Below, piece by piece: positions 37,059-41,685 of a stretch of DNA of 64,000 bases. This DNA comes from Pseudomonadota bacterium (GTDB taxonomy: Bacteria; Myxococcota_A; Polyangia; JAAYKL01). The stretch spans positions 254,343 through 318,342 of the forward strand of contig JALNZK010000002.1 in assembly GCA_023229365.1 (NCBI GenBank), written 5' to 3'. The notes under the pieces were generated by a model. That model saw only the letters and a program-made list of their open reading frames with translations, was not told the origin of the DNA and did no database searches. A program made the position numbers and the translations under genes. Position 1 is the stretch's first letter, and each line of letters starts with the position of its first letter.

Positions 37059-37625
37059 TTATGCAAGTGAATCAAGAAGTGCTTTTTGCTCTTGTTCGTT
37101 GAGAGTATAAATGAAGGTCTTGATATACTCTCCCCGCTTCCAAAGTTCTTGAATTAGATTTTCAATAACTTTCCAGTCGCCACCTGCTCTCATAGAACCA
37201 AAAGCTGGGGCGTGAATCTCAACTGGATTATTTTCATCCCATAGCTTTAGACACAATTGCTCTACTGTGTGCATGGCCCGACCCAAAGGACCATATTTGA
37301 TTGGGCGTGGGTTTTCTCTGCCAATCAGCCCCTCTTGTCCAATCATGTTGACCACAAAGATTGGCCCGTGTATATCTGGCAGGGCTGGTTCCACACAAAC
37401 TATTTGGGCCTCTCCCAATTCAAATGGGATGCCACGTTCGTAATCCCATCCTTCCCGATACCACCTTCGATACAACTGAGCAGTGCTGGGCCATTTTTGC
37501 TCTAGAGGAACTACAAAACCCGATCCCCAAGCCCCTATTGAATTTACAATGTGAGGGATAACCACTGGGCTAAGTGTGCTGGGAAACAATTCAAACAAAT
37601 TGCCAGTTCTGTAATCAATGCTCAT
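37059..37625 (-). CDS. Macro-domain protein (ADP-ribose binding/hydrolase)
   Basis: IPHIVNSIGAWGSGFV resembles IVNAAN..LGGGGV. GEAQIVCVE resembles GxAxiT. IFVVNMIG resembles VIHtVGP. IHAPAFGSMRAGGDW resembles SIAFPAISTGIYGYP. Starts at MSIDYRTG by ATGA overlap with the upstream 88-aa gene. The 280-aa version in the ORF track is a read-through. Confidence 0.55.
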   Translation of the reverse strand: MSIDYRTGNLFELFPSTLSPVVIPHIVNSIGAWGSGFVVPLEQKWPSTAQLYRRWYREGWDYERGIPFELGEAQIVCVEPALPDIHGPIFVVNMIGQEGLIGRENPRPIKYGPLGRAMHTVEQLCLKLWDENNPVEIHAPAFGSMRAGGDWKVIENLIQELWKRGEYIKTFIYTLNEQEQKALLDSLA

Positions 37626-37888
37626 GGTATGATTTGAACACAGCCAACATATGGCTGGTCCGTCCTTTCTAAAAGTTCTTGTTGAATCAATGCGTCCCGA
37701 AGTTTTTGCACAACTTCCGAATCTTTTGTAATTGAGCAAGACGCATTGGTGTTGATAATTTCCAATATTGTTTCCAATACCGGGGTTGGGATCATACAAA
37801 TGCCATCCCACATTTCTGCATATGACTTTACATCCGGGGCAGCTTGTTCTGTTTGTGGCACAATTACTTTCCTTATACAAAGAAACAA
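37622..37888 (-). CDS. Small hypothetical protein
   Basis: 88-aa ORF. Its stop overlaps the macro-gene start (ATGA). Confidence 0.35.
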   Translation of the reverse strand: MFLCIRKVIVPQTEQAAPDVKSYAEMWDGICMIPTPVLETILEIINTNASCSITKDSEVVQKLRDALIQQELLERTDQPYVGCVQIIP

Positions 37889-38091
37889 TCATCGTTAACA
37901 CAATTTGTCATCCCGAACAATATCCCTGGGCCATTGCCCTCTTCATCTTGGGATGGATAAATTCGACTACCATCATCTAAAACCAAGACTTTGGGCGGAT
38001 CACCGCACCTTTCCCATCCTTCTTGTTGCAATTCTTTTTTGTTCATTTTGCGAACTGCAACGATGGTTCTGCCAACAAGTTTATGTGCCAT
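37873..38091 (-). CDS. Small hypothetical protein
   Basis: 72-aa ORF. Confidence 0.3.
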   Translation of the reverse strand: MAHKLVGRTIVAVRKMNKKELQQEGWERCGDPPKVLVLDDGSRIYPSQDEEGNGPGILFGMTNCVNDDCFFV

Positions 38092-38094
38092 AAT

Positions 38095-39267
38095 CTAAGC
38101 ATCCAAAGGTGTTCCATAATGTGTCCATCGGGCCACTCGCAAAGCGTCTTTGTCACCAACAGCTTTTCCGCCGTCTTCGCTCAGTTTCACTACGGGAATG
38201 CCGTTTAGAGCCCACATTTTGATAACCATATTCAATGGTTTTAAATCGCCATCAAAATCATTGGTGAAATGAGTGCCAATGCCAAAGCTGCATCGGATGC
38301 CCAATTCATCACAATAATGCTTGATTTCTACTGCTTTATCAGCATTTAAATTATCTGAAAAAATCAGCGTCTTGGTGGCTGGATCGATTTTCAGACCTTG
38401 GTAATGTGCAACCAATTGATCGGTAAACTTGAATGGACAACCACTATCATGCCGTGCTCCATCCCACAGGCGTGCATGAAATGGTCCGAAATCTTCCAAA
38501 AAAGACTTCAGCCCATAGGTGTCGGTAAGCACAATCCCAAGCTGAGCATTGTATACTTTCACCCAAGCATCCATCGCTGCCAGATTAGCATGACGCAAGC
38601 TGCCCAAAACACTGTGGGCTTGAACCCACTCATGAGCCTGAGTGCCTATTGGCTTTGTTTTGTATTTCATCGCAAAATAGGGATTACTGGTGCCGACAAA
38701 AAAGCCTTTGGTGTTTTTGCAAAATTCTTCAACCACCAAACCCTGGGCATCAGCACTTCGTCTTCGACGGGTGCCAAAATCAGCAAAATGACACCGCTCA
38801 GATTCCAAAATAGCCAATTTATTTTGGGCTCTTTCTCGTTGTCCATTGTAATCCCAATTTTTATTATGGAAATACAATTCACTTATCAGTGCCATCAAAG
38901 GCACTTCCCACATCACAGTACGGTGCCAAGAACCTTTAATATGAATGTGGAGTTGTCCTGATTCTTGCCAAATTTCTACTTCTTGGGGGTTGTAGCGATA
39001 ATTTCGCAAATATTCAATGTAGGCTGGCTTGACAAAAGGACAGGACTGTTGCAACCAAGTGGCTTCCTGACCAGACAAAGACAGTGCGGGCATATATTGA
39101 ATGGATCGTCGTAATGTTTCAGCAAATGCTTCATCAAAAGTATCGCTGGGACGACGATTGAAAAATCTATATTCAGCCCGTGCAGAAGGATACAATTCCA
39201 GTATCGCCTGCTGCATTGTCAGTTTATAGAGATCGGTGTCTAAGATAGATGGCAAATTCATTATCAT
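38095..39267 (-). CDS. pncB: Nicotinate/nicotinamide phosphoribosyltransferase (PncB-like)
   Basis: N-terminal ILDTDLYKLTM (PncB LDTDxYKxTM). GTSN and FGIGTHF motifs. About 390 aa. Confidence 0.7.
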   Translation of the reverse strand: MIMNLPSILDTDLYKLTMQQAILELYPSARAEYRFFNRRPSDTFDEAFAETLRRSIQYMPALSLSGQEATWLQQSCPFVKPAYIEYLRNYRYNPQEVEIWQESGQLHIHIKGSWHRTVMWEVPLMALISELYFHNKNWDYNGQRERAQNKLAILESERCHFADFGTRRRRSADAQGLVVEEFCKNTKGFFVGTSNPYFAMKYKTKPIGTQAHEWVQAHSVLGSLRHANLAAMDAWVKVYNAQLGIVLTDTYGLKSFLEDFGPFHARLWDGARHDSGCPFKFTDQLVAHYQGLKIDPATKTLIFSDNLNADKAVEIKHYCDELGIRCSFGIGTHFTNDFDGDLKPLNMVIKMWALNGIPVVKLSEDGGKAVGDKDALRVARWTHYGTPLDA

Positions 39268-39738: not shown

Positions 39739-39935
39739 GGTTTTCTCCAAAAAAATAGGGGTGGTCCTGATTTTTTCCTGTGGGTTGCTATCCCATATTA
39801 TTGTTACCACCCTTTACCGTCATCGTATTGGTGGGATTAGCCTTAGCAAAGGGCCTTGCAAGTCAATCAGGCTATCATCATCGATTTTATGCGTGCATCT
39901 CCGATAGGTTCGTCAACACCACCCCAATCCAAGGG

Positions 39936-40676
39936 TTAAAACGCCACACTCTGGCTAGGCCCGCCAGTACCAAGAGCCTGACTTGTGCTGGATACGGACT
40001 TGGAAATCCAATTAGCCAGTTTTGCAAAAGTTTTTTCGTTGAAGTCTTTCATTTCCTTCATTTCTTCGCTGAATCCTGCTTCCTTGTGGAATTCTTGCAG
40101 CATCTTGAGAGCCGTGGGGTCTGCGACATTGACCGCCACCAAAGCTGACATCATTGATTCCAAATACTCGGATTTGACCGCATTACCGAAAGCAGTTTTG
40201 CAGGATAGAGGAGTTGTCTTGGATCGATTGTCCATCCCATCCGTGACAACAACCACAAACGCATTGGTGTTATAATCCTGCTCGCCCAAATATTGGGCAT
40301 AATTGGTAGTGGCCTCAATGGCATCCACCACAGCATCATATAACGCCGTCATACCACCAGGATGAAGCACGCCATCATAATCACCCTCATTGATTTGTGA
40401 CAGCATTTTGAAGCCGTGAACTTCTTCGGCAAAATCCTCAAAAGCCACCAAGCGAATCATCAAATTATCGCAACGGTCGCTTTTGTGGCAGCCCTTGAAA
40501 ACTTCTTTCAATACCTGTTCCATTGCTACTTGAAAATCTGCGGTGCTGCCACTACGGTCAGCTACCACAGTGACCAGGGTGTATTCACTGGCACCCAGAT
40601 CATTTAGACCTACGGCAGAAAAGCCGAAGTGTCCCGCCTTATGCGAAACAGGAACTAATTGTTTACTCTCTCCCAT
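39936..40676 (-). CDS. von Willebrand factor A (VWA) domain protein
   Basis: MIDAS motif VADRSGSTAD (DxSGS) and VVVTDGMDN. Confidence 0.6.
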   Translation of the reverse strand: MGESKQLVPVSHKAGHFGFSAVGLNDLGASEYTLVTVVADRSGSTADFQVAMEQVLKEVFKGCHKSDRCDNLMIRLVAFEDFAEEVHGFKMLSQINEGDYDGVLHPGGMTALYDAVVDAIEATTNYAQYLGEQDYNTNAFVVVVTDGMDNRSKTTPLSCKTAFGNAVKSEYLESMMSALVAVNVADPTALKMLQEFHKEAGFSEEMKEMKDFNEKTFAKLANWISKSVSSTSQALGTGGPSQSVAF

Positions 40677-40812
40677 TGAATTCTCCTTTGTAAAAAATCC
40701 GGTTCAATAGTAACATCCTACCCACCGGCAGTCCAAATTTGTTACCAGTGTTCATCGCCAATCCAAGGGGACGCATGAGAGGTCAACCCAAGGATTAGTG
40801 ATAGTTGTTTCT

Positions 40813-41685
40813 TTATGCCAAGTAATCCACGGTAGTTGTCGTTTTCATTCCCCGTTTTGTCATTTCGGAAATGAAATCGGCCTGATATTGCTCAAAGCCA
40901 GGAACAGGCGAAGTGCCATCAGTGAGCAAAACGCATTTGGCGATAAACGAATCATCGCCAAAAGAATTTGCCATGTCTCGGAAAGTGTTGGGCAAACAAT
41001 GTGTGCTTGCTTCACCGCATGCCAAGATTTCGTCTGCCTCCATGACACCTTGGATGAATTGGGAATTCATTTGGGTGAAAGGATCATCGGGATCGGGAAC
41101 TTCAGCACGAACGGCAGAAAAATGTTCCACGAACGGATTGGAGCCCTTGGTAACAAAATCAATGGTTCTAAATCCGTCACGACACCAATCCAAAAGATTT
41201 TCCATCAGAGGGGCGACAATATTGTGCCCAGGGGTGCCGATGAGACAGTGAGGAGGCCAAATGCAATGGGGATAACGCTTGCCGGTTTCCAGAGCTTCCA
41301 AATACTTGTAAGTCCTGTCGAAATAACCCGGCTTGGTCGTAGTATAATGACCCACAACACTAGGACCGCTGGTGCCAAACATGGTGCCGATAATCATTCC
41401 ATTTTCGGGACGCATGATGGTAAAGGGAGACGGGGGATTCCCATATTGATCTTTGAACCAATTGGGGTGGGCTACGTGATTCCATTGGTGGGAATCCATT
41501 GTGCCAGAGATTTGGTCGATTTTCCGACCGAGGCGGTGAACCATTTTTCCCACACGAACCATATCATCCCAAGCACCAGGAACACACAACTCACCATCAT
41601 GGATCAACTGCTGTTGGGCGGCATCAACGACCTTACAGAAGGAATTCTGCGGATCGATGATGACCAAATGAATGCGACGAGGCAT
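40813..41685 (-). CDS. pncA: Isochorismatase-family cysteine hydrolase, probably nicotinamidase (PncA-like)
   Basis: LVIIDPQNSF (PncA LVDLQNDF). Candidate catalytic Cys in ILACGEASTHC (compare VCGIATDYCV). Confidence 0.5.
   Translation of the reverse strand: MPRRIHLVIIDPQNSFCKVVDAAQQQLIHDGELCVPGAWDDMVRVGKMVHRLGRKIDQISGTMDSHQWNHVAHPNWFKDQYGNPPSPFTIMRPENGMIIGTMFGTSGPSVVGHYTTTKPGYFDRTYKYLEALETGKRYPHCIWPPHCLIGTPGHNIVAPLMENLLDWCRDGFRTIDFVTKGSNPFVEHFSAVRAEVPDPDDPFTQMNSQFIQGVMEADEILACGEASTHCLPNTFRDMANSFGDDSFIAKCVLLTDGTSPVPGFEQYQADFISEMTKRGMKTTTTVDYLA

Follow-up and report, generated by a model that had tools for sequence, protein, structure and literature searches.

The 64-kb stretch of DNA analysed here (the window) carries a conserved four-gene cassette on its minus strand, in which a nicotinamidase-like gene (PncA-like) is followed by a vWA protein, a PP2C-type phosphatase and a YegI-like kinase, the last reaching position 33788. 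With the balance tipped slightly in its favor, our reading is that this cassette forms a backbone with variable NAD inserts, that the PncA-like protein and the nicotinate phosphoribosyltransferase PncB would feed host NadD and NadE, and that a macro domain encoded among the inserts acts separately. The genes belong to a single leftward string, running from approximately 41757 to 33788, of a huge myovirus whose contig is at least 340 kb long. A contractile tail sheath is also encoded in the window, as are further genes for virion parts and replication. Proteins identical to the window's PncA-like and vWA products are found on a 340,072-bp contig that was submitted as a 'Proteobacteria' metagenome-assembled genome (MAG), and among GenBank phages, homologues of this PncA-like protein are confined to uncultured huge phages of 462–595 kb. 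All of the genes in the interval 37059–41685 lie on the minus strand, with coordinates as in the open reading frame (ORF) list; besides the four genes named in the first-pass annotation (macro domain, PncB, PncA-like and vWA), a Tyr-rich repeat gene and three small ORFs occupy it.

We compared the cassette across 25 huge-phage and 56 bacterial loci. Scanning viral contigs with the single PncA-like sequence gave no matches, and the alignment-based scan recovered the loci. The order PncA-like, vWA, PP2C, kinase is kept in 22 of the 23 IMG/VR loci collected with the PncA-like profile (contigs up to 485 kb, guanine–cytosine (GC) fraction 0.27–0.61). The 56 loci in representative bacterial genomes are mostly from Myxococcota (GC 0.55–0.77) and include one on a 9.4-Mb chromosome. 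Directly 3′ of the bacterial PncA-like gene, vWA is present in 44 of the 56 loci and the kinase in 38, and a PP2C is detectable between vWA and kinase in about 14 of these 38 vWA-then-kinase loci. The next conserved gene is NrtR (Nudix plus winged helix), a repressor of NAD genes that responds to ADP-ribose; it adjoins the cassette in 21 bacterial and six viral loci; the window contains none. The linkage spans 34–65% identity from phage to Myxococcota, and the genes flanking the cassette show no conservation in the viral or bacterial loci. In three distinct loci (L109, L116 and L119), only 10–75 bp separate vWA and PP2C. PncB, NadE and NadD occur in a minority of the IMG/VR cassettes. On one 350-kb contig, some 170 kb separate PncB from the cassette, and in one Fibrobacterota locus PncB directly follows the PncA-like gene. 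The conserved cassette, the NrtR association and the pattern of PncB adjacency argue for a functional tie of the nicotinamidase-like gene to both NAD metabolism and the vWA–PP2C–kinase trio. As a separate observation, huge-phage contigs carry cellular labels in public MAGs ('Crenarchaeota archaeon', 'Bacteriovoracaceae bacterium' and 'Proteobacteria bacterium'), among them the L016/L206 contigs (546 kb) and the 340-kb contig from which the window comes; therefore, some 'bacterial' matches in genome collections are phage.

The PncA-like protein has about 2000 homologues, and its AlphaFold2 (AF2) model has a predicted local distance difference test (pLDDT) value of 91.5. The best Foldseek matches in the PDB are all nicotinamidases (3v8e, 2wta, 9u8m, 1ilw, 3r2j and 3pl1; E values of 1e-12 to 1e-8), with the yeast Pnc1, A. 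baumannii PncA, Drosophila Naam, P. horikoshii and M. tuberculosis PncA (MtPncA) enzymes as best neighbours. The target-normalised template-modelling scores range from about 0.5 (for 9u8m, a longer chain) to 0.81, and the identity to solved nicotinamidases is 14–18%. Three short motif alignments match D11, H146 and C230 to D8, H71 and C138 of MtPncA. The Asp–Lys–Cys triad is composed of D11, K180 and C230, in which K180 corresponds to K96 of MtPncA by position only. The metal site is composed of D64, H66 and H146 (Asp/His/His), accompanied by a WPPHC motif; D64 and H66 were equated by motif, without structural superposition. Across 45 homologues, each of these six positions (D11, D64, H66, H146, K180 and C230) is either invariant or conserved to at least 90%. 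The fold, the triad and the metal site agree with the first-pass call of a nicotinamidase, and the protein looks like a working enzyme that would convert nicotinamide to nicotinate and ammonia. Elsewhere, the fusion proteins P0449 and P0473 (900–911 aa) combine an Isochorismatase domain (PF00857) with CN_hydrolase and NAD_synthase, which is a Rosetta-stone-type link between a nicotinamidase-family domain and NadE.

The trio follows in the order vWA, PP2C, kinase, with shared orientation and with its catalytic residues, the β3 Lys of the kinase excepted. The vWA protein has no Pfam match, PF00092 being present in some homologues, and its family profile gave only spurious matches, none of them vWA, among PDB sequences. 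Its AF2 model (pLDDT of 87) is matched by Foldseek to 3n2n and 1sht (ANTXR/TEM8), integrin I domains and BatB with E values of 1e-9 to 1e-6. The metal-ion-dependent adhesion site (MIDAS; DxSxS...T...D) is complete, as none of D40, S42, S44, T110 and D146 varies among 35 sequences. Fold and MIDAS together bear out the vWA call. The C-terminal tail is Ser/Gln-rich and disordered, with conserved residues S225–S241, and hhalign aligns the vWA profile with E. coli YegL, Ser-rich tail included (E = 5e-4, probability 31%); the Joint Genome Institute annotation of the protein is also YegL. The metal motifs D18, D31-G32, D108-G109 and D200-G201 of the phosphatase are retained across 33 sequences, and pairwise comparison with the E. 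coli counterpart gives E = 0.24. The kinase core matches E. coli YegI at 1e-4 by BLASTP, and 52 sequences share G22, G23, H123, D131, N136 and D149 without exception. The ATP-anchoring β3 residue (motif A-Y-K) is Lys in 49 of the 52 family members, and Asn36 is found at this position solely in this phage. The Gly-rich loop contains an unusual Lys25 where the family has Gly or Ala. The window kinase may thus be either a pseudokinase or a case of WNK-like lysine relocation.

The PncB assignment is unambiguous. The protein matches Pfam NAPRTase_N (9e-39) and NAPRTase (3e-64), and it exceeds the cut-offs of two equivalog models (NF003704, 469.3 bits against 379; TIGR01514, 440.7 bits against 269.55), as expected from its first-pass call. 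The similarity to the P. aeruginosa enzyme (1yir) is 8e-84, with GTQAHEW aligned to GTMAHEW; the His of this GTxAHE motif is presumably the phospho-His. Together with the PncA-like protein, PncB would provide just the first two steps of the Preiss–Handler route, nicotinamide to nicotinate and nicotinate to nicotinate mononucleotide (NaMN), and the predicted pathway is incomplete in the window. A tblastn search with the NadE and NadD of relatives gave no match anywhere in the 64 kb. A database search for NadE returned no cluster on a 340,072-bp contig among its best 120 matches; this is an indirect test, which did recover NadE on contigs of recorded sizes matching six PncA-like carriers. A metagenome scan with the NadE alignment was uninformative, as among the matches listed there were only bacterial NadE proteins of at most 50% identity. 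Pfam, NCBIfam and PHROG scans of the cluster, of almost every called ORF from 130 aa upwards in 42–64 kb and of a few ORFs of the first half revealed none of the gene pairs of NARP1, NARP2 and NARP3 (Adps and Namat, Nampt and Nmnat, PnuC and NadR); most first-half ORFs, outside these scans, are largely structural by inspection. The proposal of a Preiss–Handler entry that does not use NadV is supported by relatives that carry PncA-like, PncB, NadE and NadD in one block.

These relatives also define the insert slots. Their order is uracil-DNA glycosylase (UDG), PncA-like, vWA, PncB, NadE (CN_hydrolase plus NAD_synthase), PP2C, NadD and kinase-like, and the complete Preiss–Handler order is seen on contigs of 546, 277 and 122/85 kb by public gene calls. 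PncB, NadE and NadD are all inside the cassette in L016, L020 and L104–L107. In the window, the NadE site is occupied by the 72-aa ORF, the 79-aa ORF, the macro gene and the 66-aa ORF, and the 175-aa Cys-rich ORF lies where L016 and L020 have a CTP_transf_like NadD. The nearest relative, a sister contig with an 80% identical PncA-like protein, has the arrangement of the window: PncB, a macro-sized gene of 187 aa, a 66-aa gene and PP2C. In the next relative (L262, 75%), PncB is followed by a GIY-YIG/NUMOD3 homing endonuclease [L262:13059-13844 (-)], and both NadE and the macro gene are absent. Since NadE, the macro gene with its small ORFs or a homing endonuclease alternate after PncB among relatives, this slot is a site of gene turnover, and the sub-lineage appears to keep only the first two pathway steps. 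The homing endonuclease suggests a mechanism for the turnover. The Tyr-rich gene between vWA and PncB contains four 39-nt coding repeats at 39325-39666 and has no family matches; in L262, the same site holds a G/Y-rich protein of analogous composition. A public call of 140 aa in another frame (39264-39686) was rejected in favor of the repeat frame and is probably wrong. A second small protein, encoded at 43124-43513 (-), likewise has a hydrophobic segment at its N terminus and repeats rich in Tyr, Pro and Gly.

The macro gene starts at the ATG of MSIDYR at 37625, as in the public gene call of 188 aa; a 280-aa GTG ORF extending to 37901 was rejected as overextending this true start. The protein has no Pfam Macro match. 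It is recognized by phmmer against solved macrodomains (5e3b/SCO6735, 3e-19; 2fg1/BT1257, 2e-17; 2afc, 3e-17) and by PHROG 335 (4e-13), and the match to the PADLOC DarG model is only 0.0057. The subfamily comprises 2667 representatives at E ≤ 1e-3. H25, N28 and Q97 correspond to H24, N27 and Q85 of SCO6735 and are near-invariant in 150 representatives. Mutagenesis of SCO6735 has shown that H24, N27, K34, Q85, K89 and G128 matter, with Q85 being essential, and that enzyme acts on ADP-ribosylated thymidine in DNA and on proteins (PMC9411070). At least 184 stretches of viral contigs carry this macro type. Among the best 80 viral macro loci, PncB or NadD is nearby in one, and PncA-like, vWA or the cassette in none; the adjacency of macro and PncB in the window is therefore local, with no conserved functional link. 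The macro protein is most likely a separate predicted ADP-ribosyl hydrolase of the SCO6735/DarG class, probably acting on DNA or proteins. The first-pass annotation had named it a macro domain that could reverse DarT-type ADP-ribosylation; the solved macrodomains confirm the first part, and the second is in keeping with membership of that class, which was assigned by sequence homology.

Table 1. Features of the cassette, its inserts and its surroundings in the window.
Feature	Coordinates	Strand	Basis or remark
HAD-Nudix fusion	29384-30229	+	Confirmed
YegI-like protein kinase homologue, 571 aa, cassette core	33788..35503	-	BLASTP, motifs
175-aa Cys-rich (zinc-ribbon-like) protein	35523..36050	-	Only weak Zn_ribbon matches; at relatives' NadD site
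PP2C-type Ser/Thr phosphatase, cassette core	36043..36855	-	Pfam PP2C_2 1.4e-12
66-aa ORF	36858..37058	-	66-aa gene at same site in sister contig
SCO6735/BT1257-type (ALC1-like class) macro domain, 188 aa	37059..37625	-	phmmer PDB
79-aa ORF	37622..37861	-	Public gene call; stop overlaps macro start by 4 nt
72-aa ORF	37873..38091	-	Public gene call; insert at NadE position; no family matches
Nicotinate phosphoribosyltransferase PncB	38095..39267	-	Pfam, NCBIfam, PDB
Small Tyr/Gly-rich repeat protein, N-terminal hydrophobic segment, variable insert	39307..39738	-	Four 39-nt repeats
YegL-like stand-alone vWA protein	39936..40676	-	AF2, Foldseek, MIDAS
Divergent nicotinamidase, PncA-like, 290 aa	40813..41685	-	AF2 fold, Foldseek, motifs
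Sigma-70-like promoter candidate TTTACA-16-TATAAT	41730..41757	-	Sequence read directly
UDG, family 4	41758..42312	-	Upstream neighbour; 184-aa start per public gene call

From these features we propose the following mechanism. The four-gene cassette would be the backbone, and gene turnover would take place in two gaps, one separating vWA from PP2C and the other following PP2C. The nicotinamidase-like enzyme would convert nicotinamide to nicotinate, and PncB would combine nicotinate with phosphoribosyl pyrophosphate in an ATP-driven reaction to give NaMN, both activities being predicted from family membership and conserved catalytic residues. Host NadD and NadE would then complete the route to NAD+, so that nicotinamide released by NAD consumers, either host NADase defences or phage enzymes, may be pulled back to NAD+. 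More speculatively, the trio may act as a phospho-switch on the nicotinamidase or as a scaffold with it, with the Ser-rich tail of vWA as a candidate substrate. Functionally apart from this route, the macro domain would strip ADP-ribose from DNA or proteins. A counter-defence role for the genes is plausible as a hypothesis. More tentatively, and accepting that it may well fail, we suggest that the unit of nicotinamidase-like protein, vWA, PP2C and kinase, often with NrtR, is a phospho-regulated control of nicotinamide and NAD+ flux that huge phages share with Myxococcota. For phages, this would make it the regulated core of a fourth, Preiss–Handler-type restoration of NAD+ against NADase immunity, with PncB, NadE and NadD as plug-ins and the nicotinamidase switched or scaffolded by the trio.

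Several points weigh against the backbone-with-inserts reading. First, all of the activities are predictions from sequence or structure. The PncA-like protein reaches only 12.5 bits (E = 0.16) against Pfam PF00857 (Isochorismatase), below the threshold of 27, which more distant bacterial members exceed (L253, 33.7 bits; L261, 28.7 bits). Relative to MtPncA, the stretch from its catalytic Asp (D11) to the WPPHC motif is also longer by about 72 residues, a large insertion that could alter the substrate. In the kinase, N36 stands in place of the β3 Lys, which may have modified or disabled the putative switch. In the macro domain, K34, K89 and G128 of SCO6735 are replaced by Ser, Ile and Met; the G128 position, in the phosphate-binding loop, is Gly in 58% of the subfamily. 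Second, the window covers 64 kb of a genome that is 340 kb or longer, and NadD, NadE or other NAD routes may be located elsewhere. The promoter candidate upstream of the cassette is a consensus match only, and the density of promoter-like matches is at chance level. Third, the synteny among phages could partly reflect shared descent. Finally, PncB is not nearby in most cassettes; therefore, NAD+ supply may not be the primary role of the cassette.

This last point leads to the alternative that survives best, which we nevertheless consider unlikely. Here, a nicotinamidase regulated by kinase, PP2C and vWA would clear nicotinamide and thereby tune sirtuins, ADP-ribosyltransferases (ARTs) and NADases, and PncB and the other NAD genes would be later additions in some phages. 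The cassette might even deny nicotinamide to the nicotinamide-dependent NARP1 and NARP2 of rival phages. Most phage loci and almost all bacterial ones have the conserved core but no PncB; the core is also linked to the ADP-ribose sensor NrtR and includes regulatory enzymes. Yeast Pnc1, which controls Sir2 by clearing nicotinamide, offers an analogy. However, host PncB is common, so nicotinate would still reach NAD+, and the repeated insertion of PncB, NadE and NadD points to NAD+ flux.

The first-pass annotation had instead grouped macro, PncB, PncA-like and vWA into one NAD+/ADP-ribose counter-defence module, in which the macro domain frees ADP-ribose or reverses ADP-ribosylation and PncA and PncB rebuild NAD+. 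The four genes are contiguous, co-oriented and tightly spaced, all are chemically linked to NAD+ or ADP-ribose, and the sister contig has genes of the same size in the same order (187 aa after PncB, 66 aa, PP2C). The grouping is improbable all the same. The macro gene is missing from all other cassettes examined, which have NadE, a homing endonuclease or nothing instead, so it is a lineage-specific insert at the NadE site of relatives, and the survey of 80 viral macro loci described above gives no recurrent association with PncB, NadD, PncA-like or vWA. Furthermore, vWA co-varies with PP2C and the kinase rather than with macro and PncB. The module was therefore mis-bounded: PP2C and the kinase lie outside its coordinates, and NadD and NadE are absent from the window.

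Inherited synteny is another alternative, and a doubtful one. The YegLKI-like trio would then be unrelated to an ordinary auxiliary PncA/PncB pair beside it, which would boost NAD+ for replication with no evasion of defence. Phage NAD synthesis genes are widely read as metabolic augmentation (PMC11662467), and vWA–PP2C–kinase trios without a nicotinamidase are known in E. coli and actinobacteria (PMC7159879). However, the nicotinamidase–trio linkage holds across phages with GC of 0.27–0.61 and Myxococcota with GC of 0.55–0.77, at 34–65% identity and with diverged flanks, which is hard to explain without selection. Lastly, the sub-threshold Pfam match, the extra residues between D11 and H146 and the 14–18% identity would allow the PncA-like protein to be an isochorismatase-superfamily hydrolase of another amide (e.g. 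nicotinamide mononucleotide, nicotinamide riboside, a modified base or a peptide) with specificity set by the insertion, but this is very improbable given an Asp/His/His site and WPPHC motif typical of true nicotinamidases, top structural matches that are all nicotinamidases and recurrent PncB, NadE, NadD and NrtR neighbours.

We compared the backbone and its inserts with known systems. Preiss–Handler clusters (pncB-nadD-nadE and pncA) have been catalogued in gut jumbo phages as 'NAD-jumbo phages' (Microbiome 2024; PMC11662467). As in those phages, a huge phage here carries PncB and a nicotinamidase, and its close relatives cluster PncB, NadE and NadD. The difference is that the window has no NadD or NadE and thus falls outside the 'complete pathway' definition within its 64 kb. 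In the part read, that article does not mention the vWA–PP2C–kinase backbone, a Myxococcota counterpart or a link to NrtR. Among experimentally shown systems, NARP1 (Adps and Namat), NARP2 (Nampt and Nmnat; the KVP40 NadV type) and NARP3 (PnuC and NadR) include neither PncA nor PncB (bioRxiv 10.1101/2024.02.11.579819; PMC13464706). The PncA-like and PncB proteins resemble these as phage enzymes that would return NAD+ breakdown products or precursors, with entry at nicotinamide as in NARP1 and NARP2. In contrast, the predicted route deamidates nicotinamide to nicotinate, proceeds to NaMN and needs NadD and NadE. The Preiss–Handler reading is thus reasonable and not new in kind.

Regarding the trio, the E. 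coli operon yegL-pphC/yegK-yegI has an identical order of vWA, PP2C and kinase (bioRxiv 10.1101/303594), and the kinase core and the Ser-rich-tailed vWA align with their E. coli counterparts. However, the similarity is weak, as the hhalign and PP2C values above show, and neither a nicotinamidase nor NrtR is encoded in the E. coli operon. Other trios of vWA, kinase and PP2C have been described (PMC7159879), including Deinococcus DRA0331-0334 (bioRxiv 10.64898/2026.01.23.701218). NrtR-regulated NAD salvage operons are known from Rodionov 2008, as cited in PMC9503650. That 2022 survey of viral NAD+/ADP-ribose systems does not mention nicotinamidase, and it describes NrtR-type sensors and vWA chaperones in bacterial ADP-ribose systems. 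The cassette resembles the latter in its adjoining NrtR and in having a vWA, since vWA 'chaperones' occur there too (PMC9503650, section 3.8). In contrast, the nicotinamidase–vWA–PP2C–kinase unit, with or without NrtR, was not found described, with NrtR regulons, ARG systems or otherwise, in a search of open-access literature, where none of the 12 matches listed (of 62) combined NrtR or nicotinamidase with vWA or PP2C. For the macro domain, the relationship is to SCO6735 and BT1257 of the ALC1-like class, which also includes DarG and TARG1: the homology and the equivalents of H24, N27 and Q85 are kept, whereas the equivalents of K34 and K89 are lost, Met occupies the G128 position and activity is a prediction. 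Counter-defences against DarTG by phage DarG-like macro and NADAR proteins have already been published (PMC13309987; PMC11825919); in contrast to those, no DarT-like target is known for the host of this phage.

The surroundings of the cassette were also analyzed. The upstream neighbour is confidently a UDG (Pfam UDG, 4.6e-36; TIGR00758, 205 bits against a cut-off of 125), and its adjacency is kept only among the closest relatives. The promoter candidate is the best match in 33000-43200, with 11 of 12 positions, and an AGGAG Shine–Dalgarno sequence lies 3′ of it, 7 nt ahead of the ATG of the nicotinamidase-like gene. An NAD riboswitch, other RNA families and tRNAs were all absent from 33000-43500. 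PADLOC defence models gave nothing meaningful beyond weak matches to DarG and PP2C. A plus-strand ORF of 392 aa (40798-41976), antisense across the whole PncA-like gene, was judged spurious in view of the confident fold and the roughly 2000 homologues of the minus-strand product.

Farther away, the HAD-Nudix fusion reported in the first-pass annotation is real. A specific relationship to NrtR was rejected, as the similarity is that of a generic Nudix box. The ART-like call for the ORF at 6039-7031 (+) was not borne out: the PARP catalytic match is sub-threshold (E = 0.0076, 16 bits against 26.7) and there is no PDB match. Seven ORFs [29079-29387(+), 28627-29082(+), 29384-30229(+), 6039-7031(+), 51001-51819(-), 7040-7525(+) and 49760-50362(+)] share a T4-like N-terminal motif, their N-termini being MKTYKEFAEQ, MNFKEFITES, MKFLEWAEQ, MDFKGFLLSE, MNFKEWMINE, MEFKYFILNE and MLTFKEWKTL. 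The motif closely resembles the capsid targeting sequence MKTYQEFIAE of phage T4 (PMC8442874). By analogy with T4 Alt and the internal proteins, the seven products, among them the HAD-Nudix fusion and that of the PARP-like ORF, may be carried in the phage head and injected. No such motif is present in the macro, PncA-like or PncB protein. Two small genes downstream of the kinase, an 817-aa major vault protein (MVP) homologue is encoded at 30774-33227 (-), with Vault_3 and MVP_shoulder as Pfam domains in the public record. The sister contig has this gene as well, and in other loci it is not found near the cassette. A vault-like assembly of MVP, vWA and the PARP-like protein was considered and dropped, as this adjacency recurs solely in the sister contig. 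Other metabolic or modification genes of the window, at 53624-54586 (-), 7596-8744 (+), 58482-59720 (-) and 57994-62047 (-), comprise a phiEco32-like COOH-NH2 ligase, a class-II glutamine amidotransferase domain protein, a B12-binding radical SAM enzyme and a run of methyltransferases and glycosyltransferases.

Depletion of NAD+ is a major antiviral strategy of bacteria, and three routes by which phages rebuild NAD+ have been demonstrated. The position of the macro gene beside PncB illustrates that adjacency alone can mislead. If true, a route through nicotinamidase and PncB would be a fourth entry point, one that uses the nicotinamide released by NADase effectors. A cassette that combines it with a kinase, a phosphatase, a vWA protein and often NrtR would offer a testable handle on the regulation of NAD+ salvage during infection, and it would also bear on the role of YegL/PphC/YegI-type trios.

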